This document shows positions 1,239 to 20,960 of a stretch of DNA of 32,000 nt, in pieces. The stretch comes from Deltaproteobacteria bacterium (GTDB taxonomy: Bacteria > Bdellovibrionota > JACOXK01), in the NCBI GenBank assembly GCA_016182335.1, contig JACOXK010000134.1, positions 350 to 32,349 on the forward strand, given 5' to 3'. The notes beneath the pieces were generated by a model, which worked only from the letters and a program-made list of their open reading frames with translations, made no database searches and was not told the DNA's origin. The position numbers and the translations under genes were made by a program. Each line of letters begins with the position of its first letter. Positions within the stretch are counted from its first letter, which is position 1.

Positions 1239-1386
1239 GTAAAAAAGTGAATAATTATAATCTTAAACGTGCCAAAAAATGATTTCAATATATTTCTATT
1301 TTATTATTTCTCAAAACAGTTTTTTCATGCATCGGTTTCATTGACAACATTTTAGTGAATGATACATCTTTTTGAGGTCTCAAATG

Positions 1387-2088
1387 GAAGGGAAAAAGCT
1401 TGATTACTATTTTAAAATTATTAAAATCGTAACACCGTTTCTTCTTATAGGAGTTGGGGTTTTAGGATATGTCTCTTTGTATCCCAATCAATTCGTTGAC
1501 GTTGGATACGCACCTGTGCAGCCCATTGCATTTTCTCATAAATTGCATACGCGTGATCTTGAAATTTCATGCTTTTATTGTCATGGAAATACTCTTTCAT
1601 CATCGCATGCAAGTATTCCTTCAACTCAAACCTGCATGAATTGTCACAGTCTTGTGAAACCTGACAGCTCAGAAATACAGAAAATTCACAAAAGTTTTCA
1701 GAATAACAAACCTATCGAATGGATTAGAGTTCATAAGTTGGCTGATTTTGCCCATTTTAAGCACAATGTTCATATCCAAGCAGGCGTAGACTGCGCCAAT
1801 TGCCATGGGGATGTGAAATCAATGGATGTTATTCAACAAGTAAAGCCTATGAATATGAGCTTTTGTTTGGATTGTCATAGAGGGAAAACGGAAATTATAT
1901 GGGCAGACTGGAAAAAAACAACAGCAGAGAAATGGGAGCCGTATAAAGTGCCTGATCAGATTGCCACTTCCCCTGGATTCCCTCTATTGGCTGCGCCTAA
2001 AGGTGGGAATGACAGTGTGCTAGGTGGGTGGATTCAAGAGCATAAAAAAAGGGTTGCCAGTGACAGGTGTTCCAGCTGCCATTATTGA
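1387..2088 (+). CDS. actA: Multiheme cytochrome c subunit of alternative complex III (ActA-like)
   Basis: Five CXXCH motifs (CFYCH, CMNCH, CANCH, CLDCH, CSSCH) after an N-terminal TM helix; first gene of an act-ordered cluster. ORF track start is 1372; ATG at 1387 follows a GAGGT sequence. Confidence 0.88.
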   Translation, partial: EGKKLDYYFKIIKIVTPFLLIGVGVLGYVSLYPNQFVDVGYAPVQPIAFSHKLHTRDLEISCFYCHGNTLSSSHASIPSTQTCMNCHSLVKPDSSEIQKIHKSFQNNKPIEWIRVHKLADFAHFKHNVHIQAGVDCANCHGDVKSMDVIQQVKPMNMSFCLDCHRGKTEIIWADWKKTTAEKWEPYKVPDQIATSPGFPLLAAPKGGNDSVLGGWIQEHKKRVASDRCSSCHY

Positions 2089-2097
2089 GGAAAAAAC

Positions 2098-5000
2098 ATG
2101 AATAATTTTAAAATAGATATGGATTCTTCGGCTACGCCTCAGGATGACAAGATTGCCACGCCACCTGCGGTGGCTCGCAATGACGTTGCTCTGAATGAAG
2201 GAAATGGGCTGGATGTTACCAGAAGAGGGTTTCTTTCTTTGCTCGGAGCAAGTGTTGCCTTAGCAACCTCGGCTTGCCGCAAACCAGTTCATAAAATTCT
2301 TCCCTTTGTAAAAGAGCCAGAAAACCTCAAGCCAGGCATTTCCAAATACTATGCATCAACTTATCCTTTAGCTGGTACTTCTTATGGAGTCCTTGTTGAA
2401 ACAAGAGAAGGCAGACCTATCAAATTGGAAGGCAATCCTGATCATCCGTTAAGTCAGGGAGCTACTCATCACTTAGCGCAAGCTTCTATATTGGATGTGT
2501 ACGACTCAGACAGAAAAAAATATCCAACTATCGGTGCAAGTCGTGTCAGCTGGGAACAGTGGATTGAGGTCACGTCGACAATACTTAAGAATGCACAAAA
2601 TAAAAATAAAAGAGTGTGTGTTCTTCATGAGTCATCTGCAAGCCCCACTTTACAAGAGGTTTTAAGAAAGTTCTCGAATCAATTTAAGAACATCAGCGTT
2701 ATTGAATTTGAGCCAACATCTTCTGAAAATGAAACTATTGCTTTTGAAGAGTGTTTTGGTCTTTCTAGCATTCCACAGCCAAAGCTGGACAAAGCTTCAG
2801 TGATTTTAAGCTTGAATAGTGATTTTTTAGGAGATCCTCGAAACAATGTTTCTTCTATCAAAGAATGGACGAAAACACGTAAAATACCCTTACAACAAAA
2901 TTCCATGAGTCGGCTTTACAGTGTTGAGAGTTTCTTGTCTCTAACGGGAACAAACGCCGATCATCGATTGGCCCTCAAACCTTCGCAACTTTTAGAGTTT
3001 GCCTTGGGGTTGGCAACAATTCTCATAGAAGAATATCAAATAGGTGATAAAAATCTCATACCCATTTTTGAGAAAGTTTCACGCCCTACATACTCTTCTG
3101 CCTACTCTGAAGCTTTTTTGAAAACTCTGGCTTTAGATCTCTCTGAAAACATTGGCAAAAGCCTTGTTCTTGTTGGTCCTCAAGAATCCAAAGAACTTCA
3201 CATTGCAGGCCTCCTTCTCAATGCTCTTTTGAAGAGTTTCTCTAACACTTTGAATTTAAAAAATTATACAACCCGGTCAAAAAACGGCTATGGGAAAATT
3301 AAAAATTTCCTTGAGGATCTTAAACACAATAAAGTTGATGTTTTAGTAACTCTCGGTGGAAACCCTGCTTACCATTTTGGCGAAGCATTCAGCATTCCTG
3401 CCCAAAAAATTCAAAATAATATTCGCTTGAGTCTTTATGAGGATGAAACTTCACAAGTCACTCGTTATGATGCACCCCTCTCTCATTTTTTAGAGTCATG
3501 GGACGATTCAAAGCCTACTTCGACATCTTTTAGCATTCATCAACCGACTTTAAGGTCTTTGTACCAATCACGATGCACGGGGGAGATGCTTTTGGAGTGG
3601 CAAGCGCATCTTGAGAATATAACGATTCTTCCAACGGAAGCATGGATTTCTGAAATCAAAAATAATTTTAAGCACAATTGGAATGAAATTCTCCAAAAGG
3701 GGTATATAAACGTGGATTCAACACCTCTTGCATTGAGCCCAATTAATGTTTCTGCTGTGAGCAGGATGATCGATGAAGGAAAATATCGATCCTTCGGGCT
3801 TCGCCGCCCTCAGAATGACAAAAAAAACAAGCAGGATGACCCGTCTTCGCCTCATGGCTTCGACGAGGCAAGCAATCACAATGACGCAGTTATTGAACTG
3901 CAGTTTGAGATAAGTCATGCAACGTTTGACGGACGTTTTGCCAATAACGGTTGGTTACAAGAGCTCCCCCACCCCGTTACAAAAATAACTTGGGATAACG
4001 TGGCAAACATGTCTTCAAAAACAGCGCAAACACTGAACCTTAAAAACGAAGATGTGATCGAACTTGCATACGGCAATAAAATTTTAAGCCTTCCCGTTTT
4101 TATTCAGCAAGGCTTGGCAGAGGGTGTTATCACGACTCAAATTGGTTATGGAAGAACGCATGCTGGGCATGTCGGCTCAAACATTGGTAGCAACGTGTTT
4201 CCGCTTCTTATGGCTTCTGATTTTTCTTGGTCTCTGACACAAAATGTTTCCATCAATAAAACAGGAAAAACTTATAAAATAGCAACGACACAAAAGCATG
4301 CCGATCTTATGGGCCGCCCTATTGCTCATGAAGCAGCTCTTGATGATTATAAAAATAATCCTGATTTTCCAAAACAAGACGATCATAGTGAGTCATTTGA
4401 TCTTTACAAAAAAGAACATACTTATCCAGGGCATAAATGGGGAATGAGCATTGATCTGACAAGTTGTGTCGGATGCAATGCCTGCGTTACGGCTTGTAAT
4501 ACAGAGAACAACGTTCCTGTCGTTGGAAAAGACCAGGTGTTGAAGGGTCGAGAAATGCATTGGATTCGAATTGATAGATACTATCGAGAAACAGAACAAG
4601 AATCCCCGGCAGTTATTCATGAGCCCATGCTGTGCCAGCACTGTGAAGACGCACCTTGTGAAAATGTCTGCCCTGTGAATGCTACAACACACAGTGAAGA
4701 GGGTTTGAATGAGATGACATACAATCGTTGTATTGGCACTCGATATTGCTCCAACAACTGCCCTTATAAAGTTCGAAGATTTAACTTCTTTGATTACACA
4801 GATGACATTTTAACTCCTGAGGAACTGGGAAAAAATCCAGATGTCACAATACGCATGAGAGGTGTGATGGAAAAATGCACTTTCTGCGTTCAAAGAATTC
4901 AAGAAGCGCGAATAGATGCAAAAAGTCATGGGCACGAAAGAATCTCCGATGGGGGCGTAAAATCTGCCTGCCAACAAGTTTGTCCTGCAGATGCTATTGT

Positions 5001-5160
5001 TTTTGGTGATTTGAATGACCCATCTTCGCAAGTTGCGAAACTTTCAAAATCTCCTCACGGATTTCATATTTTACAACATTTGAATACAAAACCGTCCATA
5101 ACTTATTTAGCTAAAATTAGAAATCCTCATCCAAACTTAAAGGAGTTTGAATCATTATGA
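2098..5160 (+). CDS. actB: Alternative complex III molybdopterin-like/iron-sulfur fusion subunit (ActB-like)
   Basis: Tat-like motif VTRRGFLSLLGASVALATSAC, GRPIKLEGNPDHP, GRFANNGWLQELP, and C-terminal ferredoxin clusters CVGCNACVTACN, CQHCEDAPCENVCP, CIGTRYCSNNCP, CTFCVQRI. Confidence 0.92.
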   Translation: MNNFKIDMDSSATPQDDKIATPPAVARNDVALNEGNGLDVTRRGFLSLLGASVALATSACRKPVHKILPFVKEPENLKPGISKYYASTYPLAGTSYGVLVETREGRPIKLEGNPDHPLSQGATHHLAQASILDVYDSDRKKYPTIGASRVSWEQWIEVTSTILKNAQNKNKRVCVLHESSASPTLQEVLRKFSNQFKNISVIEFEPTSSENETIAFEECFGLSSIPQPKLDKASVILSLNSDFLGDPRNNVSSIKEWTKTRKIPLQQNSMSRLYSVESFLSLTGTNADHRLALKPSQLLEFALGLATILIEEYQIGDKNLIPIFEKVSRPTYSSAYSEAFLKTLALDLSENIGKSLVLVGPQESKELHIAGLLLNALLKSFSNTLNLKNYTTRSKNGYGKIKNFLEDLKHNKVDVLVTLGGNPAYHFGEAFSIPAQKIQNNIRLSLYEDETSQVTRYDAPLSHFLESWDDSKPTSTSFSIHQPTLRSLYQSRCTGEMLLEWQAHLENITILPTEAWISEIKNNFKHNWNEILQKGYINVDSTPLALSPINVSAVSRMIDEGKYRSFGLRRPQNDKKNKQDDPSSPHGFDEASNHNDAVIELQFEISHATFDGRFANNGWLQELPHPVTKITWDNVANMSSKTAQTLNLKNEDVIELAYGNKILSLPVFIQQGLAEGVITTQIGYGRTHAGHVGSNIGSNVFPLLMASDFSWSLTQNVSINKTGKTYKIATTQKHADLMGRPIAHEAALDDYKNNPDFPKQDDHSESFDLYKKEHTYPGHKWGMSIDLTSCVGCNACVTACNTENNVPVVGKDQVLKGREMHWIRIDRYYRETEQESPAVIHEPMLCQHCEDAPCENVCPVNATTHSEEGLNEMTYNRCIGTRYCSNNCPYKVRRFNFFDYTDDILTPEELGKNPDVTIRMRGVMEKCTFCVQRIQEARIDAKSHGHERISDGGVKSACQQVCPADAIVFGDLNDPSSQVAKLSKSPHGFHILQHLNTKPSITYLAKIRNPHPNLKEFESL
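2122..2185. repeat. Compound palindromic repeat (type A + type B) inside the actB 5' coding region
   Basis: GATTCTTCGG-CTACG-CCTCAGGATGACA followed by GATTGCCAC-GCCACCTGCGGTGGC-TCGCAATGACG. Perfect hairpin GCCACC-TGC-GGTGGC at 2160-2174. The same flanks recur at 10681-10722 and 28788-28842. Confidence 0.72.
3788..3886. repeat. Second palindromic repeat copy inside actB
   Basis: GATCCTTCGGGCTTCGCCGCCCTCAGAATGACA (3788-3820) matches the type A repeat; hairpin GCCTC/GAGGC at 3849-3869; ends AATCACAATGACG. Encodes the polar segment RSFGLRRPQNDKKNKQDDPSSPHGFDEASNHNDA. Confidence 0.65.
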
Positions 5161-6545
5161 ATCAGGCCACAACACCTGAAATATTGGGATGTGAGCCCCT
5201 TATCATTGGGCACAAGTCCCGAGCTGAAATCACAGAACTCGTAGCTCATCCGCTGGACCACTTTCCAAACAAAATCTGGTTTGCTCTTCTGGCTGTGAGT
5301 CTCTCTGCATTTGCTATAGGACTTGGATGCATAGCATGGCTTATTTATAAAGGGATTGGCGTGTGGGGAAACAATAACCCGGTGGGCTGGGGTTTTGATA
5401 TCGTCAATTTTGTTTTTTGGATTGGCATTGGCCATGCTGGAACTTTGATCTCTGCCATTCTTTTCTTATTTCGACAGAAATGGAGATGCGCCATTAACAG
5501 AGCTGCAGAAGCCATGACGATTTTTGCTGTCATGTGTGCAGGAATTTTTCCTGCCATTCACGTGGGCCGCGTATGGTTTGCATGGTATCTTTTCCCACTT
5601 CCAACTCAGCAGAATCTCTGGGTCAACTTTCGATCCCCTCTACTTTGGGACGTTTTTGCGGTATCCACTTATCTAACCGTATCAGCTTTATTCTGGTACA
5701 TGGGATTGGTTCCTGATCTTGCTACCTTAAGAGATCGAACAAAAAATCCTGTTAAAAAAACAATTTATTCGATTTTAAGTCTAGGATGGAGAGGAGCCTC
5801 TAGGCAATGGAAACACTATGAGTCGGCCTATATGATATTTGCAGGGCTCTCAACGCCTCTTGTTCTTTCAGTCCACTCTATTGTGAGCTTTGACTTTGCA
5901 ACCTCCGTTATGCCAGGCTGGCACACCACTATTTTCCCACCGTATTTTGTTGTTGGCGCTATTTTTGGTGGGTTTGCCATGGTGCTGCTTCTCCTCTCTG
6001 TTACGAGAAAAGTTTTTCATTTTGAAAATATCATCACAATATCGCATCTGGACGCCATGAATAAGATTATTCTTTTCTGCAGCCTTGTGATTGGGCTTGC
6101 ATATGCGACAGAGTTTTTCATTGCCTGGTACAGCAGCAACTCATTTGAATACTACACGTTTGTAAACCGCATGCTTGGGCCCTATGGATGGTGCTATTGG
6201 ATCATGGTTTTATGCAATGTTATGGCACCCCAAATTATGTGGTTTCGAAAGTATCGACGAAATATACTGGTTATGATTATTGTTTCATTTTTAGTTACGA
6301 TTGGTATGTGGTTTGAGCGTTTTGTTATCATCGCAACTTCTCTTTCAAGGGACTATTTACCAAGCTCTTGGGATATGTATTATCCAACGCGCTTTGATTT
6401 TGGGGTTCTCTTGGGTTCTTTTGGGTTGTTTTTTACTTTGTATCTTATTTTTGTAAGGGTTTTACCTGCACTTTCGGTCAGTGAATTAAAAGGCATTCTG
6501 AAATCAAGTAACCCTAAAGGTGAGGTGGATGATGTTCAAGCTTAA
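5157..6545 (+). CDS. actC: Alternative complex III integral membrane quinol-oxidising subunit, NrfD/PsrC-like (ActC-like)
   Basis: Polytopic NrfD-like protein; motifs GIGHAGTLISAILFLFRQKWRCAINRAAEAMTIFAVMCAGIFPAIHVGR and FEITSLSRDYLPSSW-like C-terminus; overlaps the actB stop by 4 bp. Confidence 0.92.
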   Translation: MNQATTPEILGCEPLIIGHKSRAEITELVAHPLDHFPNKIWFALLAVSLSAFAIGLGCIAWLIYKGIGVWGNNNPVGWGFDIVNFVFWIGIGHAGTLISAILFLFRQKWRCAINRAAEAMTIFAVMCAGIFPAIHVGRVWFAWYLFPLPTQQNLWVNFRSPLLWDVFAVSTYLTVSALFWYMGLVPDLATLRDRTKNPVKKTIYSILSLGWRGASRQWKHYESAYMIFAGLSTPLVLSVHSIVSFDFATSVMPGWHTTIFPPYFVVGAIFGGFAMVLLLLSVTRKVFHFENIITISHLDAMNKIILFCSLVIGLAYATEFFIAWYSSNSFEYYTFVNRMLGPYGWCYWIMVLCNVMAPQIMWFRKYRRNILVMIIVSFLVTIGMWFERFVIIATSLSRDYLPSSWDMYYPTRFDFGVLLGSFGLFFTLYLIFVRVLPALSVSELKGILKSSNPKGEVDDVQA

Positions 6546-7101
6546 GCCCAAAACTCCTTTCAAACAAATTCATCCACACAGTGGAATTGCGGCCCAATTC
6601 GGTGAGCCCAACCACCTTCTTGACGCTGTGAAAAGATTGAAAAAAGAAGGTTTGAACGAAATAGAAGTTTTCACACCCTATCCTGTTCATGGCATTGACG
6701 CTATTTTGGAGGAGAAAAGGTCTAAAATCCCTTGGGTTAGTTTTATTGCCGGTTTTGTTGGCTTATTGGTTGCACTTCTCATGCAATGGTGGATGAGCGG
6801 CGTTGATTACAGACTTAATATTGGAGGCAAGCCGTTTTTTTCAGGCCCTGCTTTTGTGCCCATTATGTTTGAAGTAGCCGTTTTATTTTCTGCATTGGCA
6901 ACGTTTGTTGTTGTTTGGGGTGCCTGTGGGCTTCCAAAATTTTCAAGCGTCTTCGAAAAAGACCATCGCGCTTTGAGGTCCACTAATGATGAATTCCTAG
7001 TTTACTGTGACCGCTCAGATCATAGATTTGATGCTGCTCGCATTGAAGAAATCCTCAAAAACTCTGAGGCATTTGATATTAGGGTGGTGGGCGAGTTATG
7101 A
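6529..7101 (+). CDS. actD: Alternative complex III subunit ActD-like (DUF3341-type)
   Basis: AAQFGEPNHLLDAVKRLKKEGLNEIEVFTPYPVHGIDAIL followed by two TM helices; gene order. ORF track start is 6520. Confidence 0.88.
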   Translation: MMFKLKPKTPFKQIHPHSGIAAQFGEPNHLLDAVKRLKKEGLNEIEVFTPYPVHGIDAILEEKRSKIPWVSFIAGFVGLLVALLMQWWMSGVDYRLNIGGKPFFSGPAFVPIMFEVAVLFSALATFVVVWGACGLPKFSSVFEKDHRALRSTNDEFLVYCDRSDHRFDAARIEEILKNSEAFDIRVVGEL

Positions 7102-7775
7102 GTTTTTATGCCATCTCTCAGGCGCTTCGATATTTTTCTCGGGCACGCGATCGTTTTTTCCAGCGTATAAAACGTCGCTCGGCTCTCGGCTTTGCTCTTT
7201 CACTACGCCGCAAGTGGCTTCGTGAAAACCATGCCCGCAAACCCTCCGAGACGTCCCTCGAAAAACATCAAGTCGCCCTGAGTTTCCTGCACATTATTTT
7301 ATTTGTTGGATTGTGTGGTGGTTGTCAGAGATCTTTTGAGAATCCACCCCTGAGGGTTTTTCCAGACATGGATGACCAAAAAAAAGTAAAACCTCAATCA
7401 AAGTTTTCTTTTTTCGAAGGTGGCCAATCTTTGCAATATCCAATTGAGGGAACTGTTGCCCGAAATGATTTGGATTTCACTAAAAATAAAAACGTCGACT
7501 ATGGAAAATTTCTTTACTCTAGTTACTGTCTACCCTGTCACGGTATCACTGGCGAAGGATATGGCCCTGTTTCAAAACGAGAAATAGCCGCCCTTTTAAG
7601 ACCACCGTCTTTAAAAGATGGAATAACTCGTACTTGGTCTGATGAACAGATTCATCAATTGATCACACAGGGCAGAGGCCGCATGGGCTCTTACGCTCAT
7701 CTTATAAACTCTGAAGACCGTTGGGCTGTCGTAGGCTACATAAGACAATTACAAAAAAAAGGTGGAGCAAAGTAA
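7098..7775 (+). CDS. actE: Monoheme cytochrome c lipoprotein of alternative complex III (ActE-like) with a 60-codon N-terminal in-frame insertion
   Basis: YCLPCHGITGEGYGPV heme motif, downstream VGYIRQLQ; lipobox-like LFVGLCGGC displaced to about residue 70 by an Arg-rich insert. ATGA overlap with the actD stop supports the ATG at 7098. Confidence 0.85.
   Translation: MSFYAISQALRYFSRARDRFFQRIKRRSALGFALSLRRKWLRENHARKPSETSLEKHQVALSFLHIILFVGLCGGCQRSFENPPLRVFPDMDDQKKVKPQSKFSFFEGGQSLQYPIEGTVARNDLDFTKNKNVDYGKFLYSSYCLPCHGITGEGYGPVSKREIAALLRPPSLKDGITRTWSDEQIHQLITQGRGRMGSYAHLINSEDRWAVVGYIRQLQKKGGAK
7099..7285. mobile_element. Palindromic mini-element inserted in frame in actE, flanked by TGAGTTT direct repeats
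   Basis: TGAGTTT at 7099-7105 and 7279-7285, 180 bp apart. Inverted arms CTCAGGCGCTTCGATATTTTTC (from 7117) and GAAAAACATCAAGTCGCCCTGAG (to 7282); inner inverted repeat TTTCAC/GTGAAA at 7198-7227. Confidence 0.72.
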
Positions 7776-8969
7776 ATGCCGCATAAACTTAAAAACACAG
7801 ATCTTTACATTCAACCTCACAGTGGGGTGACGTTTGTTAAAACCGTCAATTTATCTTTATTTCTGCTAACTTCAGCGCATTTCATCGTTTCAGCGTTTGT
7901 GGATATTCACAGAGTCATGTTTAATTATCTCTTTAGTTTATCGATTGTCCTATCTCTTATTCTTGGCGGTTTTTTCTTTACGATGCTTCATCATGCTACA
8001 AAATCCAAATGGAGTGTTGTTGTTCGGCGCATAAGTGAATCTTTTACATCCCTTGTTCCTTTTGGTGTTTTACTTATTCTTCCATTGCTGGTTGGAATTC
8101 CCCATCTATACGAATGGTCCAATGCACAGCATCTTTCCCATGATGTTGCTCTGCAAAGCAAATCGCACTATCTCAACATTCCATTTTTTGCTATACGATC
8201 CTTAAGCTACATGCTTATTCTGTGGTTTCTTTATATAAAAGTCATTAAACCATCTTACGAGCAAGACTATACTGAAAACATTCAAACCACTGCTCACTTG
8301 TGGAAATGGAGCTGCATTGGTCTTTTTCTTTTTGGTTTAACAGTTCAATTTCTCTCCTTTGACTGGCTCATGTCACTCTCCCCTCATTGGTTTAGTACTA
8401 TTTTTGGCGTGTACGTGTTTTCAGGATGTGTTGTTGGTGGTTTATCCGCCATGATTCTTGTTATTGCACTGCTACGCTACTTTGGTTACATGGCCATGGT
8501 CACGGAACATCATCTTCATGATTTGGGAAAACTTCTTTTTGGTCTTAACGTTTTTTGGGCTTACATTGCATTTTCCCAATACATGCTGATTTGGTATGGC
8601 AACATGCCCGAAGAAACTGTTTTTTTTATAGTGCGTCAGACCGGCGAATGGAAAAACTTTTCACTTATTCTTCCCATAGGACATTTCGTCATTCCGTTTT
8701 TATTTCTGATTTCACGTTCTGTTAAAAGAAATATTATTCTTTTAAGTTTTGGCGCTTTTTGGCTTCTTCTGATGCACTGTGCAGATTTATTCTGGCTCAT
8801 CATGCCCAATTTCTCAAAAGAAAAAGTGCCTTTTGGAAGTCTTGAAATAGGGGCTTTTGTATGGGGATTAAGTCTATTTCTGTTTGCTGCGCTTTCAAAA
8901 TTACAGAAAAATGCTTTGGTCCCTATCAGAGACCCTCATCTAGCTGATTCCATCAATTTTCATCAGTAA
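7776..8969 (+). CDS. actF: Alternative complex III membrane subunit ActF-like
   Basis: About 10 TM helices; motifs LSFDWLMSLSPHWFSTIFGVYVFSG and LGKLLFGLNVFWAYIAFSQYMLIWYGNMPEET. Confidence 0.9.
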   Translation: MPHKLKNTDLYIQPHSGVTFVKTVNLSLFLLTSAHFIVSAFVDIHRVMFNYLFSLSIVLSLILGGFFFTMLHHATKSKWSVVVRRISESFTSLVPFGVLLILPLLVGIPHLYEWSNAQHLSHDVALQSKSHYLNIPFFAIRSLSYMLILWFLYIKVIKPSYEQDYTENIQTTAHLWKWSCIGLFLFGLTVQFLSFDWLMSLSPHWFSTIFGVYVFSGCVVGGLSAMILVIALLRYFGYMAMVTEHHLHDLGKLLFGLNVFWAYIAFSQYMLIWYGNMPEETVFFIVRQTGEWKNFSLILPIGHFVIPFLFLISRSVKRNIILLSFGAFWLLLMHCADLFWLIMPNFSKEKVPFGSLEIGAFVWGLSLFLFAALSKLQKNALVPIRDPHLADSINFHQ

Positions 8970-8975
8970 TTGCAC

Positions 8976-9647
8976 TTAGGAATGCTTATATAGTCTGGTC
9001 TTAGGCTCTGCTTGGGGCATTTTTTGTAATTGATGGGCGTTGATAAAAACATCCACTGTTTTTTCATCAAATTGTGTTCCTGCACAGCGACGCAATTCAG
9101 CATAGGCAAGTTCAGCGGACATTGCTTTTCGATAAGGCCTGTCCGATGTCATAGCATCAAAAGCGTCAGCTACGGCAATTATCCTTGAAGGAAGAGGAAT
9201 ATTTTCTGCCTTTAAACCATCAGGGTATCCCAACCCATCGACTCTTTCTTGGTGGGATCTAACCCATTGAGCTACATTTTTAAGGGAACTTACCTCACAT
9301 AGAATTTCAAAACTATGAATGGGGTGTTGTTTGATGATTTCAAATTCTTCATCTGTAAGTCCAGAAGGCTTATTAAGAATTTCAAGTGGAGTTCCTATTT
9401 TTCCAATATCGTGCAATAAAGCCGCTAGTTCTATTTCATGAAGAATGGCTTGAGAAAATGAAAAGTTTCTTGCAACCATTAATGAATAATAAGCCACACG
9501 CCTTGAGTGCCCCAAAGTGTATTTATCTTTGGCTTCTAAAGTTTTGATAATAGCATTGAGAGCCTCTTCGACTATTTTTTTATTTTGCGCTTTAAGTCTC
9601 TCAACTTCTTTGCTTAACTTTAAAATCAACTCATCTCTTCCATCCAT
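8976..9647 (-). CDS. HD-GYP domain phosphodiesterase/hydrolase
   Basis: HSRRVAYYS, LLHDIGKIG, HPIHSFEIL, RSHQERVDGLGYPDGL, IIAVADAFDAMTSDRPYR. Confidence 0.93.
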   Translation of the reverse strand: MDGRDELILKLSKEVERLKAQNKKIVEEALNAIIKTLEAKDKYTLGHSRRVAYYSLMVARNFSFSQAILHEIELAALLHDIGKIGTPLEILNKPSGLTDEEFEIIKQHPIHSFEILCEVSSLKNVAQWVRSHQERVDGLGYPDGLKAENIPLPSRIIAVADAFDAMTSDRPYRKAMSAELAYAELRRCAGTQFDEKTVDVFINAHQLQKMPQAEPKTRLYKHS

Positions 9648-9767
9648 GTACTCCCTATCGGATGGAATGTGAAATTAGCTTAATCTCTGTTCAAAAAAAC
9701 CTGCCTGACCCTCTTTTCAATCTCAAACTTCGTCATTAGACTCGTTTTCGATAAAAAAAGAGTTTCC

Positions 9768-9828
9768 GCCTGTTAATCTAATCGTAACTGCTGCGCACGC
9801 TCGCATTTACGCTAAGATTAACAACGGC
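9768..9828. repeat. Long imperfect hairpin in the intergenic region between the sigma factor and HD-GYP genes
   Basis: GCCTGTTAATCTAATCGTAA pairs with the reverse complement of TTACGCTAAGATTAACAACGGC with few mismatches; a second small inverted repeat CGGTTTT/AAAACCG is at 9834-9854. Confidence 0.6.
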
Positions 9829-9898
9829 TCCATCGGTTTTCGAATCAAAAACCGTGCCGACTTCATGAAAATCAACTCAGTGGCAGGGCTGTGCTATA

Positions 9899-10666
9899 TT
9901 ACGCTGGATTCAACTGGTTTTTAAATCTCTTTTTGAGTATCCCCATCGCCTGGGTATGAAGCTGGGAGACCCTGGACTCTGTGACATTTAATATTTCACC
10001 AATTTCTTTTAGATTCAGATCCTCATAGTAGTACAGTGCCAGTACTAATCGCTGCTTTTCAGGCAACTCTTCAAGATTTGAAATGATCATCTCCTTGATA
10101 TCTTTGTCATTCAAACTTGAGAGTGGATCATCGAAGGAGTCCATTTGTATCAGTTTTAAAAAGTTTTTTTTGTCAGATTGTGAAAAATCAGAAAATGAAT
10201 CAATATTTAAAATAGAAACGGGCTTTGTTTGGGAGAGTAAATCATGTAATTCTTCAAGGCTTACACCTAGCTCTTTTGCAATTTCCTTATTGCTAGCGCG
10301 CCTCCCAAGCCTTTTCTCAATAGCAAAACACGCACGCTCAAGCATTTTAGATTTCTCTCGAACACTTCGAGGGACCCAATCCTGAGCTCTTAATTCATCA
10401 AGAATGGCACCTCGAATTCTAAATTCAGCATAAGTTTTAAATTGGTTATCTCGTGTAGGATCGTATTTTTCGATAGCGTCGATCAAACCAATCACGCCAG
10501 AACTTACTAGATCGTCAAGCTCAATATTTGCAGGTAATCTCATGGCAATTTTTTTTGCTATGAACTTAATTAATGGCATATACTCTTGAATCAATTCACT
10601 TCTCTGACGTGAATTTAAGTATTTGAGTTTTTTTTTATTCCACTGATTTCTTACTGATACCCCCAT
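9899..10666 (-). CDS. RNA polymerase sigma-28/FliA-WhiG family sigma factor
   Basis: EYMPLIKFIAKKIAMRLPANIELDDLVSSGVIGLIDAIEKYDP, QFKTYAEFRIRGAILDELRAQDWVPRSVREK, and C-terminal LPEKQRLVLALYYYEDLNLKEIGEILNVTESRVSQLHTQA. ATG at 10666 preceded by GGGGGGAG. Confidence 0.9.
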   Translation of the reverse strand: MGVSVRNQWNKKKLKYLNSRQRSELIQEYMPLIKFIAKKIAMRLPANIELDDLVSSGVIGLIDAIEKYDPTRDNQFKTYAEFRIRGAILDELRAQDWVPRSVREKSKMLERACFAIEKRLGRRASNKEIAKELGVSLEELHDLLSQTKPVSILNIDSFSDFSQSDKKNFLKLIQMDSFDDPLSSLNDKDIKEMIISNLEELPEKQRLVLALYYYEDLNLKEIGEILNVTESRVSQLHTQAMGILKKRFKNQLNPA

Positions 10667-10680
10667 AGCATCTCCCCCCT

Positions 10681-10722
10681 TGTCATCCTGAGGCCACAAG
10701 GCCGAAGGATCTCAGAGTGACA
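10681..10722. repeat. Type A palindromic repeat upstream of the sigma factor gene
   Basis: TGTCATCCTGAGGCCACAAGGCCGAAGGATCTCAGAGTGACA; its reverse complement matches GATCCTTCGG...CCTCAGGATGACA copies inside actB. Confidence 0.65.
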
Positions 10723-14494: not shown

Positions 14495-16762
14495 CTAATC
14501 AGACAGTTTACCCAGTCTGTTTTTAGCTGCTAAAAATTTAGGGTTAAGTTTCAGTGCTTTATTAAAGTGTTCTTGAGCCTTATCTTTTTCATTGAGCTCA
14601 ACTTCTGCAACGCCCAATAAATAATAAACGGCAGGGTTCTTCGGCTCAAGATGCGACGCCTTTTCTAAGTTATCTTTACTTTTGTGCCATTTTTTTAAGA
14701 TTTGATAAGAGCTGCCCAGGTTCATATACGCTAGAGCAAAACCTGGATTTAAACTTAAAGATTTTTCAAAATGCTTCACAGCTTCTTCTGTTTTTCCTTG
14801 AGAAAGCAAAATCCCGCCCATATCATTATAAACGATGGCATTGTTGGGTTGAATTTTTTGCGCTTCTTCTAAAAGATTGAGGGCCTTTAAAGTTTCTTTT
14901 TGGGTAATCAACTCACGTGCTTCATGAAGGTAGGAATCAATTTATGAAAACTTTGGGTTTAAATCAAACGCTTTTCGATATTCCTCTTGAGCTTTGTGCC
15001 AATTTTTTTGTTTTTCATATAAGAAACCTAAATTGTAGTGCGCCATAGGGTCTTTAGCATTGATAGATAACGCCTTTTCATACGCTTTCACGGCCTTTTT
15101 CGAACGGTTGAAATCTCTTAAAATATTTCCCTGATTAACATACAGAGATGAAAGCTCTGGCTTTAGAGCAATAGCTTCTTGAATGTGATTTAGAGCGAGC
15201 CTAAAACTTTTCTTTTCTTTATATAAAAGGGAAAGCTGATTGTGCACCACATAGGCTTTGTTATAACCTGGATTTTCTTGTAAAATCTTTTCATACGCTG
15301 CAGTAGCTTCTTGAGTTTTTCCTGATTCTTCCAAGTGATACGCTTCTAAAAGAGGGTTTCTTGTATCAAAGTGAGACTTAAGGGTTTTTTTCTCTTTTGA
15401 CTCATCTATGTTTACCAACTCTCCCTGATTTACATAACCTAAAGATACCAGCTTTTCTTTTAAAGTATCATCAGAAGAAGAGCGTATCGGTGGTGGTTGA
15501 TCTTTCTTTTTGCCTCTTTCATAGCTTGCAATATAAGAAATTTTTTCAATATCAAACTGCTCTTGTTTAAAGGCAGAAGACATAATTTGCCCTTTCATAT
15601 CTTGCGCTAAAGGCTGATCCATAAGATATAACAGTGTTGGAGCCACATCATAAAGATCATAGCCCTTAATTTCCTTTCCTATTGAAAATTGAGGTCCTAA
15701 AAATGCTATAATTCCATGCTCATCATGCCACCTTTCTTCTGCGTTTTCACCAATGGCAGCTGATGTATTAAGACGTTCATCTTTAAATTTAAACCCATGA
15801 TCTGAAATCAGAACAAATGAAGTATTGGGATGAGCCACTCTTAAAAAATCCCCTAAAATCTGATCTAAATAAACATAGGTTTGTCCTACAGCATCTTTGT
15901 ATTTTTCAAAATCTTCCTTCGATACGCGATCAAGCTTGGGTGGAGCATAATCCATATAGGTATGCATCATCGTATCTGGGGCATCCAGATAAAATGCTAG
16001 GAAATGTGGTTGATCGGTTTCTATTTTTTCCAAAGCAAGTCTGGACATTGTTTTAATGGAGGACAAAATCATGCGAAGATTATACTGAGGGTTCTTGATA
16101 TCGTATTTTCCCGTTTCATAACTTTTTTCAAATTCTTCTCTTCGAATATGAATAAAGGGCTTAGACTCCTCGTAAGTAATGCCAGAAGGGGAAGCTAAAA
16201 GATGTTGTCTACTCACAACATAGTCTTGCGGCCAAGAAAGTTTATCTATTGTTAAACGATCCCCAACAATTCGAGGGAAAATATGATAGCTTAAACGATC
16301 TGATACCAAAACCCCATTGACGGGCTGTGCAGGCCACGAAACAAGCCAGTTAAAAACACCCACGCTGAATCCTTCATCCCCTAAAATATCCCACAGTGTT
16401 CTGACTTGAATTCGATTGCTCATCACAGGAATTCTAGTTTTTTGGTCCTCATTCCATTCTAAAAAATCTACAATGCCATGCTCATCGGCACTTTTCCCTG
16501 TAGCAATCGTTGTCCATAAAACAGGGGACAGCATGGGAGAAAAAGATTTTAAATATCCAAAAGCACCCTCCGTTTTAAAGCGCTTAAAATGGGGTAACTT
16601 CCCTTCTTGAATGAAATGATCAATGATATCCCAATCGGCACCGTCCAAGCCAATAAGAATGACTTTACCAGATTTGGAATGAAAATAAAAAAAGGCAGTT
16701 ATTGCCAATACAACAATTAAACTCCCAAAGATTAAAAACCGTTTTTTATTCTTTATGTGCAT
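14495..16762 (-). pseudogene. Membrane-anchored type I phosphodiesterase (AlkP superfamily) with C-terminal TPR repeats, interrupted by one in-frame TAA at 14942-14944
   Basis: IGLDGADWDIIDHFIQEGKLPHFKRFKTEG, SPVLWTTIATGK, FLAFYLDAPDTMMHTYMDY, VLISDHGF, EERWHDEHGII. TPR units run through the stop in the same frame: ...EYRKAFDLNPKFS*IDSYLHEARELITQKETLKALNLLEEAQ... May still be translated to 606 aa. Confidence 0.72.
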
Positions 16763-16858
16763 TTGATTTAATTATCTGGTTCGAATTTACAAATCAAGCG
16801 CTATTTGTGCACGAAAATTTGTATTGTTTTTTTGTCCTCGGAAGCTATACATAGCACT

Positions 16859-17665
16859 ATGTTAGAGCACCTCACTTTGCTTGAAAATAAAACAATCTAT
16901 CTCTTAAGAGAAGCTTATAGCCAATTAAGAGAAAACACCGCTCTTCTCTGGTCAATTGGAAAGGATTCCACCACTATGCTTTGGATTGCCAGAAAAGCTT
17001 TTTTTGGTACAATTCCTTTTCCCGTTATGCATATTGATACGAGCTATAAATTTAAAGAGATTTATGAATTTAGACAAAAATATGCCTCTCTATGGAATTT
17101 AAATCTCATTGTTACAAAAAATGAGGCTGCCTTAAAAGAAGGCATGAATTTTAAAAAGGGTAGATTTGAATGCTGCGATGCTCTCAAGACACAAGCGCTT
17201 AAATTGGCTTTAAATCACCATCATTTTAAAGGCGTTTATCTTGCTATCCGCAGAGATGAACATGGCATTCGCGCTAAAGAAAGATATTTTTCTCCTAGGA
17301 ATGAGCAGTTTCAATGGAACTATCAAAATCAACCTCCAGAGCTATGGAATTTATTTAAATCTACAACAGCACAAGACGAACATATTCGAATTCATCCTAT
17401 GCTCGATTGGACAGAAATTGATATTTGGAGATATATTGAAAGAGAAAAAATTCCTGTCAATTCACTTTATTTTTCTAAAAACTTCAAACGTTTTCGAAGT
17501 ATTGGCTGTGAAACTTGTTGTGAGCCTGTTGATTCTAAAGCAAGAAATTTGAAAAAAATCATTCATGAACTGGAAACGACTACTATTTCAGAACGATCGG
17601 GCAGAGCACAAGACAAAGAAAACTCTTACAATATGCAAAAATTAAGAAGTCTTGGATACATGTAA
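16859..17665 (+). CDS. cysD: Sulfate adenylyltransferase small subunit (CysD/NodP-like)
   Basis: LLWSIGKDSTTMLWIARKAFFG, CCDALKTQALKLAL, LAIRRDEHGIRAKERYFSPR, FRSIGCETCCEPVDS, ISERSGRAQDKE. ORF track start is 16805. Confidence 0.88.
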   Translation: MLEHLTLLENKTIYLLREAYSQLRENTALLWSIGKDSTTMLWIARKAFFGTIPFPVMHIDTSYKFKEIYEFRQKYASLWNLNLIVTKNEAALKEGMNFKKGRFECCDALKTQALKLALNHHHFKGVYLAIRRDEHGIRAKERYFSPRNEQFQWNYQNQPPELWNLFKSTTAQDEHIRIHPMLDWTEIDIWRYIEREKIPVNSLYFSKNFKRFRSIGCETCCEPVDSKARNLKKIIHELETTTISERSGRAQDKENSYNMQKLRSLGYM

Positions 17666-18903
17666 TGAAAGAATCCTTTAACATTGTCATTGTGGGCCAT
17701 GTAGATCATGGAAAATCTACGCTGATAGGCAGACTCTTATATGACACACGGTCCCTTCCCAAAGAAAAAATCGTAGAAGTCAGAAAGATTTCCAAAGAAC
17801 TTGGCAAAGAAATGGAATTGGCTTTTCTCATGGATCATTTAAAAGAAGAAAGAGAAAAAAATATTACAATTGATACTACTCAAATATTTTTTAAAAGCCG
17901 AAAGCGAAATTATGTCATTATTGATGCCCCTGGTCATGTTGAATTTACAAAAAATATGTTAACAGGGGCAAGCCGTGCTGACGGGTCACTACTGATCATC
18001 GATGCCCATGCTGGCATTCAAGAGCAGACTAGGCGCCATGCTTATCTTCTCAAAATGCTTGGCATTAAAGACCTGATTGTTGTTTTAAATAAGATGGACC
18101 TTGTTCGTTATAAAGAGCACGTTTTTAATACTTTAAAAGAAGAGATTTTAACATTTTTAAAAACGCTGAACCTATATCCCTCTTTTATTATTCCACTCTC
18201 TTCAAAAGAAGGAATCCATATTTCAAAATACTCTTCACTTATGCCCTGGTATCAGGGACATTATTTAATAAACGCTCTGGATCAATTAAAAATGAATGAA
18301 AAAACAAAAAAGCCGCTGCGATTGCCCATACAAGATATTTATGAATGTGATGGCACGAAAATAATTGTTGGAAAAATAACCTCTGGAACACTCAAACAAG
18401 GCCAAAAGGTCACATTACTCCCAACTCGTGAGCAGGTTCAAGTAGCATCCATAATGGCTTTTGGTAAGAGTAAAAAGAAAAATGCACAAAAAAATGAAAA
18501 TATCGGACTTATAATAACGCCCTCTTTACCGATAAAAAGAGGAGATGTCTTGAGTGACTCACACCAGTCCGCCAAAATAAAAAATATCTTTGGGGCTCAT
18601 TTATTTTGGATATCCGAAAAACCTTTAAAAATTAATGAGCCATTCACTTTAAGATGCAATACACAGAGTGTACATTGTGAAGTGCTTAAAATTGAAAAAA
18701 GAATTAACTCTTCAACTTTGCAAGTATTGGAGATAGATGCTTCTCTTCTTAACACAAATGAAGCAGCTGTCGTTGTCTTAGAAGCAAAAGTTCCCCTCAT
18801 TCATGACCCATTTAACTTTATCGAAGAAATGGGAAGATTTGTCATTGAACAAGACTTTAATATTCAAGGTGCAGGTGTGATTAAAGAAGACACACTCTTT
18901 TAA
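17665..18903 (+). CDS. cysN: Sulfate adenylyltransferase GTPase subunit (CysN/NodQ-N-like), no APS kinase domain
   Basis: GHVDHGKSTLIGRLLYDT, NITIDTTQIFF, DAPGHVEFTKNMLTGASRADGSLLIIDAHAGIQEQTRRHAYLLKMLGIKDLIVVLNKMDLV; start overlaps the cysD stop; 412 aa. Confidence 0.88.
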   Translation: MKESFNIVIVGHVDHGKSTLIGRLLYDTRSLPKEKIVEVRKISKELGKEMELAFLMDHLKEEREKNITIDTTQIFFKSRKRNYVIIDAPGHVEFTKNMLTGASRADGSLLIIDAHAGIQEQTRRHAYLLKMLGIKDLIVVLNKMDLVRYKEHVFNTLKEEILTFLKTLNLYPSFIIPLSSKEGIHISKYSSLMPWYQGHYLINALDQLKMNEKTKKPLRLPIQDIYECDGTKIIVGKITSGTLKQGQKVTLLPTREQVQVASIMAFGKSKKKNAQKNENIGLIITPSLPIKRGDVLSDSHQSAKIKNIFGAHLFWISEKPLKINEPFTLRCNTQSVHCEVLKIEKRINSSTLQVLEIDASLLNTNEAAVVVLEAKVPLIHDPFNFIEEMGRFVIEQDFNIQGAGVIKEDTLF

Positions 18904-20960
18904 AATAAACTTTTTCCGTCTAAATCAAGTGCCTTTATGTATTGGTCATCGTACCCTGTCATTTTTAAGATCGTCGGCATCATATCGTAGATGGACACTG
19001 TGTCCTGAACCAGAGGTTTGTTCATGAACAAAACGCCCGGCACAAGCTCAGGATCAAACAAATGATCGCCAGACCATTTTTTCAAATTGTCTTCCAACAA
19101 CTCGCTGGGCACTGCCCCCATAGCCGTTTGCCAGGATGCACGATAACCCTCATGAAATCCAACATAAAGATCTGGGGCATCATTGGCTTTATCACCCCAA
19201 AAAATTTCTTGTCCTAAGTAGACGCGAGAGACGATTTTTTCAGAATGTTTTTGATCGACCCACGTCTGTAATTTTTCAGATATCTCTTTTTTAAGTTCTT
19301 CACTTTCTGATTCTACAATGCCTTCTGCCTCTCTTCCCTTTTGGTTCATATAAATACCCCCAAACCCCAACGCATAGGCTTTTGTTTTTGTCCAATCAAT
19401 GTCTTTTAGTAATTCCTGGCCACTACTGGCTGATTTATTTTTTAATACTAAATAACCATTGTCCCTCAACCAACTATTTAAATGAACCGCTCTTCTAAAC
19501 GTGCCAAATCCATGATCCGATAAAACAATGATTGTATCCTCTTGTCCGATATGACCCATCACTTCACCTAAAATCTGATCCATTTTTTCATACCAATCAT
19601 AGATAGCCGTTTTATATTGTTGGGCAGCCTTATCGTCATAAAGAGGGTGCTTGGGATCAATATAGCGCCAAAACATATGTTGAATCACATCAGAAGATCC
19701 AAAATAGAAAAAAAGAAGCCCCCGATCAAAGCGATTTAATTCGTAAGCCAAAATTTTTTTCTTTTCGGTGAGCAATGTATTGATTTGCAAAAGGGCTGCA
19801 TCCTCGCCAAGTCTGCCTTCATTGACCGCCCATGTATCGGCCGGCATGCCTTGAGTATGAAAGCAACCTATATGTTCTGCAAGTTCTTGACTGTACTTTT
19901 TCGGGTGTGAAATTTGGAAATAAGGATTTTTAGGATCAAAGTTTATTGGACTTAAATAAAGATTAAACTCTGGCTCAAGAGATGCCAAATAAAATCTTAC
20001 AACACCTCTCATTTTCTTAAACAAACCCACTTTAAACGCAACTTCTTTCCACCCACTCCACTCACCCACTGTGAGCTCAAATTTATTATTTTCATAAATA
20101 ATGTAGACGGTGTTCTTATCCTTTTGAACAACTCGAAAAGGTGTTTTTACATGGGCTGCGTCTTTAAAAAAGCCTTTTATTTTAGGACCAATGAAATCTA
20201 ATTTCATCATTCGAGAATTATAGATGTTAAAAACTTTTCCTCCCGTCGTATTTTTATTTTCTAAAACTTCTGAGGTATAAAAAGTAAATGTGCCTTCTGT
20301 CCCCAGAATATCTGGCACCCCCATACCAGAAAGCATTGTGCCAAATACTGCATCAGGGGGGAACGTAAGAGGATGAGATATAATCGCGGTGGGGATTTTT
20401 TTATCTGATGTGTACTGCCAAAAACGTTTGTCTTTAATAATAGATTTTACTTTCCCTTGAGTGGTATTTGAAAGAGACAGTCTCAAATCATATGTCTTAG
20501 GATCTCTTAAAATAAAGTCGAAAATACCCGTTTTTGCAGGATTTTTGCCCGTAGAAAAGGCCGTCCAGGCAACCGGGGACTGAGGTGGATTTGTCGTCTG
20601 TAAACGCTTGTAAGATCCATGAGATTTAAGCATTGAAAAATGGGGCAATTTTCCTTGTGCCATCATCGGTTCCATAATCTTTGGGCTAAGACCATCCATG
20701 CCTAAAATAATTATTTTTCGATTGAAATTACCGCTTTGACTACTATTTTTCATAAAAAAAAATCCAGCACTGAAGAGGACTAAAATGATAATGCAAAAAA
20801 ATGTAAAATAAAACTTATGCCTTCTCATAAAATTAACAATTTTCTTAAAAAAAATTACGATAAGACCTAATAAGCCTGACAAAAGACCTAATAACCAACC
20901 ACCAATACTAAAAATGACGTACCCCGAAATAGGATCAATATAACTTAAGTTTAAATCCAC
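18900..20960 (-). CDS. Membrane-anchored type I phosphodiesterase/nucleotide pyrophosphatase-like protein (AlkP superfamily)
   Basis: N-terminal TM segments including YIDPISGYVIFSIGGWLLGLLSGLLG; IILGMDGLSPKIMEPMMAQGKLPHFSMLKSHG; SPVAWTAFSTGKNPAKTGIFDF; YFGSSDVIQHMFWRY; LSDHGFGTF; GDHLFDPELVPGVLF. Confidence 0.88.
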   Translation of the reverse strand: MDLNLSYIDPISGYVIFSIGGWLLGLLSGLLGLIVIFFKKIVNFMRRHKFYFTFFCIIILVLFSAGFFFMKNSSQSGNFNRKIIILGMDGLSPKIMEPMMAQGKLPHFSMLKSHGSYKRLQTTNPPQSPVAWTAFSTGKNPAKTGIFDFILRDPKTYDLRLSLSNTTQGKVKSIIKDKRFWQYTSDKKIPTAIISHPLTFPPDAVFGTMLSGMGVPDILGTEGTFTFYTSEVLENKNTTGGKVFNIYNSRMMKLDFIGPKIKGFFKDAAHVKTPFRVVQKDKNTVYIIYENNKFELTVGEWSGWKEVAFKVGLFKKMRGVVRFYLASLEPEFNLYLSPINFDPKNPYFQISHPKKYSQELAEHIGCFHTQGMPADTWAVNEGRLGEDAALLQINTLLTEKKKILAYELNRFDRGLLFFYFGSSDVIQHMFWRYIDPKHPLYDDKAAQQYKTAIYDWYEKMDQILGEVMGHIGQEDTIIVLSDHGFGTFRRAVHLNSWLRDNGYLVLKNKSASSGQELLKDIDWTKTKAYALGFGGIYMNQKGREAEGIVESESEELKKEISEKLQTWVDQKHSEKIVSRVYLGQEIFWGDKANDAPDLYVGFHEGYRASWQTAMGAVPSELLEDNLKKWSGDHLFDPELVPGVLFMNKPLVQDTVSIYDMMPTILKMTGYDDQYIKALDLDGKSLF

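Follow-up and report, generated by a model that had tools for sequence, protein, structure and literature searches.

A lineage-specific insert, probably akin to a miniature inverted-repeat transposable element and single-copy in all data searched, in the predicted export signal of an alternative complex III cytochrome

The stretch of DNA analysed here, called the window, comprises 32,000 nt of contig JACOXK010000134.1 (positions 350 to 32,349, forward strand) of assembly GCA_016182335.1, the metagenome-assembled genome (MAG) of an uncultured Deltaproteobacteria bacterium. According to its list of open reading frames (ORFs) and Pfam matches, it contains a complete operon for alternative complex III (ACIII), actABCDEF. 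The actE gene, placed between actD and actF, encodes a monoheme cytochrome c that resembles the ActE subunits of solved structures: its top matches in the Protein Data Bank (PDB) are all ActE chains (6f0k_E 1.5e-16, 6btm_E 1.9e-16, and 6lod_E). After codon 2-3, this ORF of 225 residues holds 60 additional codons, bracketed by two copies of the heptamer TGAGTTT. An earlier note on this DNA had described them as a palindromic mini-element inserted in frame into actE and comparable to those of Rickettsia. We confirm the observation; the interpretation is partly supported.

The native ATG of actE, at 7098, overlaps the TGA stop of actD (7099-7101) in the sequence ATGA, and this stop falls within the left copy of TGAGTTT. 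The second copy is perfect and starts 180 nt after the first, which leaves a core of 173 nt between them (Table 1). Without one repeat and the core, the gene reads ATG AGT TTC CTG CAC ATT ATT TTA TTT GTT GGA TTG TGT GGT GGT TGT, or MSFLHIILFVGLCGGC in translation, as the note had predicted: a signal peptide of orthologue-like length. The corresponding empty site would read …GAGTTATGAGTTTCCTGCAC…. A repeat search recovers the inverted arms and the inner TTTCAC/GTGAAA hairpin, and the Arg-rich stretch quoted in the note is present in the ORF. Its remark that the palindrome starts 11 nt inside the left repeat and runs into the right one is equally correct, the overlap on the right being 4 nt. There is neither a promoter nor a terminator within the insert, which is open only in the host frame and in one reverse frame, neither of them with a homologue.

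Table 1 Features of the actD-actE junction and of the ACIII operon, in window coordinates.
Feature	Position	Strand	Remarks
Left direct repeat TGAGTTT	7099..7105	+	putative target-site duplication
Inserted core	7106..7278	+	173 nt, GC- and CpG-rich, no relative in the databases searched
Left inverted arm	7117..7147	+	CTCAGGCGCTTCGATATTTTTCTCGGGCACG; begins 11 nt inside the left repeat
Inner hairpin	7198..7227	+	TTTCACTACGCC / GGCTTCGTGAAA; 12-nt arms, 83% complementary; in minimum-free-energy folds
Right inverted arm	7252..7282	+	ends ...GAAAAACATCAAGTCGCCCTGAG; extends 4 nt into the right repeat
Right direct repeat TGAGTTT	7279..7285	+	
Native h-region and lipobox codons	7281..7325	+	SFLHIILFVGLCGG|C, residues 62-76; from hydropathy and Cys alignment
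Haem-binding motif CLPCH	7527..7541	+	residues 144-148; C144, C147 and H148 invariant in the homologue alignment
actA	1372-2088		five CxxCH motifs
actB	2098-5160		
actC	5157-6545		
actD	6520..7101	+	ORF, ACIII subunit D; Pfam PF11821 ActD, E=6.4e-56
actE	7098..7775	+	ORF of 225 residues, monoheme cytochrome c of ACIII; Pfam Cytochrome_CBB3, PDB ActE matches
actF	7776-8969		

The homologues compared are the closest orthologue, P0002 (65% identity, on two metagenome contigs of ~1 kb), and six others, seven aligned sequences in total. This is the alignment that the earlier note had proposed for finding an empty site, and none of the seven has a counterpart of the 60 residues. P0002 starts with MKRIVLVIFLLCVSCQKSF (in a longer form MKRIVLVIFLLCVSCQKSFQNPPLRVFPDMDDQ) and displays the same ATGA overlap with actD. 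Five of the six remaining homologues start shortly before the hydrophobic core; P0008 alone has a longer N-terminus, with ~35 residues before a transmembrane helix, unrelated in sequence.

The composition and codon usage of the insert are foreign to the host. Its GC content (52% over 7106-7285, versus 39% for the window) is the highest of any 180-nt stretch in the 32 kb, about 3 standard deviations above the mean. It is also by far the most CpG-rich part of the window, with 19 CpG in 180-nt windows over the insert versus 5.1±2.5, and a CpG observed/expected ratio of 1.62 versus 0.74. All 11 Arg codons of the insert are CGN, versus 51.5% in host genes (p ~7e-4), the host using AGR for 48%; none of its 7 Leu codons is TTR, versus 39% in host genes. 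An independent assembly, that of sample SRR12113430 in Logan, shows no difference over 401 nt that include both junctions, which makes an artefact of MAG assembly unlikely, and an identical product of 225 residues is annotated at NCBI (MBI2027566.1) and in the Logan assembly. Judged from sequence comparison, the 60 codons constitute, with high confidence, a lineage-specific insertion and no ordinarily evolving part of ActE.

Downstream of the insert ActE is intact and its haem motif is kept. By hydropathy, the native hydrophobic core starts around residue 58. It leads to LCGGC (residues 72-76), which aligns with LLAGC 20-24 of the ActE of Rhodothermus marinus, where Cys24 has been proposed to be lipidated (PMC5928083). 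In P0004, P0005, P0006 and P0009 the canonical lipobox Cys likewise stands opposite Cys76; P0003 lacks this Cys. Mature ActE is predicted to begin with Cys76 as its lipidated residue, and the insert, on the same alignment, appears to lie wholly within the n-region of a lipoprotein signal peptide, so that the mature cytochrome should be unchanged. Confined to the likely cleaved part of an export signal, the insert is probably harmless. Moreover, ActE is beneficial but not essential in Flavobacterium johnsoniae (PMC8552683), hence the cost of a partly impaired precursor would be lower.

The net charge of the 60 added residues is +11, and no hydrophobic stretch among them would suffice to cross a membrane. 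Beyond 7098, the first in-frame ATG, GTG or TTG is the TTG codon directly ahead of the first Cys. With no other start ahead of the hydrophobic core, translation would have to begin at 7098, and the long form would be the only exported product. A downstream start that turns the insert into a spacer is rejected accordingly: the only candidate, the TTG before the first Cys, would leave no signal peptide. We also rejected a twin-arginine (Tat) signal at 'KRRSALGFALSL', after which no more than 9 hydrophobic or neutral residues precede RRK; that c-type cytochromes are matured after Sec export is a further argument against Tat for ActE.

In its operon position within actABCDEF, its CxxCH motif and its Cys at the position of lipobox Cys24, the protein is like the ActE of R. 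marinus (6F0K) and F. johnsoniae (6BTM). It differs from them in a predicted signal peptide of 75 residues versus ~15-23, and in a non-canonical lipobox (LCGG|C). Export-compatible long N-terminal extensions before a normal n/h/c signal peptide are generally known from the extended signal peptide regions (ESPR) of autotransporters. The Pfam scan detects no sequence similarity to these, however; the ESPR is a conserved, selected motif, whereas the extension described here looks like translated junk DNA.

Neither coding nor RNA libraries provide a source for the insert. Its six-frame translations have no match among 5.8 billion protein clusters, nor has the host-frame peptide in an exhaustive phmmer search of 1.84 billion cluster representatives, and a fragment of a foreign protein-coding gene is rejected on both grounds. 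A Pfam scan gives no match, and Rfam none at E<=1. A fragment of rRNA, tRNA or other structured RNA as the source of the high GC is rejected as well, with no Rfam match and no tRNA. When the insert is compared with its 200-nt flanks on both strands by the Smith-Waterman algorithm, p ranges from 0.04 to 0.65, not significant after four tests; this disposes of a local or inverted duplication of the 3' end of actD, of which 7059-7080 gives a hint. The lack of protein, Pfam, Rfam and flank matches points to DNA of a non-coding type, and the Arg-rich peptide is simply the translation of CpG-rich DNA. No other protein carrying the insert peptide was found, and this extends to those proteins of the source sample that are indexed from NCBI and Logan.

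A degenerate pattern of the arm consensus returned 78 and 107 single matches in unrelated taxa, approximately the chance expectation calculated from the pattern length. None of the matches extends beyond ~25-40 nt and none has a partner arm. One of them, L090, lies in the metagenome that also yielded the orthologue; inspected by eye, it has no inverted partner and was rejected.

[quoted passage not shown] The core is short (173 nt, below 500 bp), has no transposase gene and is flanked on both sides by a perfect 7-bp TGAGTTT that could be a target-site duplication. Its arms pair better than shuffled sequence: the left arm against the reverse complement of the right scores 15 by Smith-Waterman, whereas 500 shuffles average 8.1 and do not exceed 14. 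Folded as single-stranded DNA (DNA parameters), the insert reaches z=-3.2; its RNA folding energy gives z=-1.95 against shuffles. The candidate terminal-repeat sequence, for comparison with the ends of insertion sequences (IS), is CTCAGGGCGACTTGATGTTTTTC.

Intragenic prokaryotic MITEs such as ERIC, QMITE1 and QMITE2 of Coxiella burnetii and the MITEs of Anabaena (reviewed in PMC10969869) are likewise shorter than 500 bp and without transposase. The insert is within the range of such elements in its size and its 7-bp repeat. One of them, QMITE2, measures ~190 bp, with 7-9 bp repeats and terminal inverted repeats of 23-29 bp (PMC10969869), to be compared with the 7-bp repeat and the ~30-nt arms of the insert. 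As in intragenic MITEs, the transcript would form a hairpin and the open frame is fused in frame to the host gene; in-frame fusions by intragenic MITEs and by Rickettsia palindromic elements (RPEs) are documented. The insert differs from MITEs in being known as one copy, in having its left arm internal to the repeat, in having no identified parent IS and in lying within a gene, MITEs being typically intergenic.

The proposed course of events is as follows. The target TGAGTTT, at the overlapping actD stop and actE start, would have been duplicated on insertion. Ribosomes starting at the native ATG would read through the insert, because 173 + 7 = 180 is divisible by three and the frame is free of stops; these two properties would coincide by chance in ~4% of cases (0.115 x 1/3). 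The added residues would come to lie upstream of the hydrophobic core and lipobox and merely lengthen the cytoplasmic n-region, their charge being in keeping with the positive-inside rule. Cleavage by signal peptidase II would still take place before Cys76, so that ActE would be released lipid-anchored and unchanged, which would explain why the insertion was tolerated. Removal of the n-region on maturation, together with survivorship, would account for the persistence of the insert. In this scheme we infer that transposition was the mechanism, that translation starts at 7098, that cleavage takes place and that the insertion is neutral.

Several observations weigh against this reading. Pairs of 7-mer repeats at distances of 100-259 nt number 747 in the window, or ~1.5e-4 per position and distance, and the estimated chance of a 7-mer repeat bracketing this junction is p ~0.02-0.07. 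Among 192-nt windows of the host sequence the arm score ranks no higher than the top 0.9%, with ~9 loci in the 32 kb reaching it. GC content accounts for the RNA folding energy (z=-0.12 relative to a regression on GC). The left arm lies 11 nt short of the repeat and is thus non-terminal, and an element that ended at the arms, with 166 nt, would put the gene out of frame. Typical MITEs are AT-rich (PMC10969869), unlike the insert, which is GC-rich relative to its host. The restored signal peptide has an n-region without Lys or Arg, and LCGG|C does not conform to a strict lipobox rule of the PROSITE type: the ancestral N-terminus may therefore differ from the exact reconstruction. The description 'textbook lipoprotein signal peptide' in the earlier note is overstated on these two counts, and what stands of it is the alignment of its Cys with the canonical lipobox Cys and with R. 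marinus ActE.

The search for further copies weighs in the same direction. The window contains neither a second copy, although another might be expected in 32 kb of an element-rich genome, nor any transposase or IS. Peptide-pattern scans of the GTDB representative genomes and the JGI metagenomes found no copy, and IMG/VR, plasmids and phages have none. The scans of GTDB and JGI did not recover the query locus itself, however, so the source genome is in neither collection. With the source genome outside the DNA collections searched, the absence of copies is weak evidence. In sum, the insert is real and lineage-specific; it is probably MITE-like and single-copy in all data searched, the claim of a mobile element being unproven.

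The parallel with RPEs drawn in the earlier note is justified in part. Like RPE-1 to RPE-10, the insert is a short palindromic sequence (RPEs measure ~100-150 bp) that lies in frame and stop-free in a functional gene, retains the host protein and adds a peptide that appears to be tolerated. The parallel ends with sequence: peptide searches in six frames, against databases with Rickettsia proteins among their entries, found no relationship, the palindrome is moderate, and no second copy turned up in the data searched, which do not include the source genome. Furthermore, the host is an uncultured 'Deltaproteobacteria' MAG, where no recurrence was seen in other genes, and RPEs occur in mature regions of proteins, whereas the insert is in a presumably cleaved signal peptide. 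For want of any sequence relationship we place the insert outside the RPE families; what it shares with them is outcome, by analogy only, and not family.

A bolder version of the MITE-like reading, which we consider unlikely, is that a family of palindromic mini-elements compatible with coding, so far undescribed, exists outside Rickettsiales, in a free-living or predatory lineage of the 'Deltaproteobacteria' type, and that the insert is its first copy to be sighted. Such elements would contrast by their high GC with an AT-rich host, have a length plus duplication that is a multiple of three, and possess two stop-free frames. Its copies could persist in genes, and this one would have survived by landing in a cleavable signal peptide.

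A different origin is possible, if rather doubtful: a one-off capture of stray DNA, intragenomic or external, by microhomology-mediated illegitimate recombination or template switching, with no element family and no mobility. TGAGTTT would then be microhomology and no duplication made by a transposase; survival would still follow from an in-frame, stop-free insert in a cleaved signal peptide. The single-copy status in every data set searched, the non-terminal arms, the foreign composition and the lack of a transposase nearby all agree with such a capture. Against it, inverted arms of ~31 nt (0/500 shuffles) together with an inner hairpin are unexpected in a random fragment, the very large protein and RNA libraries contain no donor-like coding or RNA sequence, and single-copy status counts for little when the source genome lies outside the searched collections.

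It is improbable that the 60 residues are a native, selected extension of ActE that arose in situ, either as an Arg-rich cytoplasmic domain altering targeting or anchoring, or as an mRNA hairpin tuning the coupling of actD and actE. The frame is indeed open, ActE N-termini vary (P0008 with its extension of ~35 residues, P0003 without the Cys), and long n-regions are generally known in other systems, such as autotransporters. Yet the codon usage, CpG and GC content of the segment are unlike host coding sequence, it is absent from the nearest orthologue, it has no homologue among the 1.84 billion cluster representatives, and the perfect flanking repeat is left unexplained.

Very improbable is an artefact of assembly or sequencing, or a minority variant wrongly fixed in the MAG consensus. 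The source is a MAG and only sample SRR12113430 carries the insert; nevertheless, the same sequence runs across the junctions in both the NCBI MAG contig and the Logan contig, a repeat of 7 bp is much too short to produce a de Bruijn mis-join, and the insert keeps the reading frame. Programmed translational bypassing, as in gene 60 of phage T4 and the GC-rich 'byp' inserts of yeast mitochondria, with take-off at AGU UUU and landing at AGU UUC 180 nt downstream to give the native MSFLHII... signal peptide, is scarcely credible: the identical 7-nt take-off and landing sequences and a GC-rich, hairpin-forming insert in an AT-rich gene would suit it, but the take-off site is not followed by a stop or stalling codon, the gap exceeds any known bypass more than threefold, and selection would not keep a skipped insert open and in frame, so that this state would be a coincidence of ~4%.

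Outside the operon, the window carries ordinary core genes of a chromosome, among them those for an Mla transporter, CysD/CysN, Der, RNase III, RuvAB and a sigma-54 activator; a search for tRNAs and Rfam families (the latter at gathering score) gave no match across it. Another lipobox-like sequence is seen in the operon: the N-terminus of ActB (2098-2290) shows a twin-arginine signal that ends in ATSAC (…TRRGFLSLLGASVALATSAC), in agreement with the lipid anchor that has been mentioned for ActB of F. johnsoniae (PMC8552683). The same segment is among the GC-richer stretches of the window. As for ActE, an unusual L-C-x-x-C box with a Cys at -3, in place of the canonical lipobox, is common to the protein described here (LCGGC, 7309-7325) and to its closest orthologue (LCVSC, L001 456-470), and the LCVS|C of the latter fails the strict PROSITE-like rule as well.

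The second most CpG-rich stretch of the window, 9648-9898 (14-15 CpG per 180 nt, observed/expected up to 1.9), is intergenic between an HD-GYP-type gene (8976-9647, -) and fliA (9899-10699, -). It holds a strong hairpin with 21-nt arms (9771-9791 / 9803-9823, 86% complementary) and has no similarity to the actE insert and no Rfam match. At 18-81, directly upstream of an AAA_14/DUF4143 ATPase gene (87-1238), a 32-nt unit, TGACTATTTTGGCATGTAGGTCATAATAGACT, stands in two tandem copies that are 94% identical. Finally, two large proteins with type I phosphodiesterase / nucleotide pyrophosphatase domains (14942-16762 and 18900-20960, - strand), one of them with C-terminal TPR repeats, flank cysD/cysN-like genes (16805-18903).

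Should it prove a one-off, the insert is a curiosity confined to a single uncultured genome. If the mobile-element reading is true, it would be selfish DNA persisting inside a functional gene, an example outside Rickettsia. It would then suggest a rule of tolerance: the n-region of a cleaved signal peptide may accept a positively charged, structureless extension, which is discarded after export. That reading further predicts a lipoprotein signal peptide of 75 residues that still works, and would thus bear on the limits of Sec/Lsp recognition.

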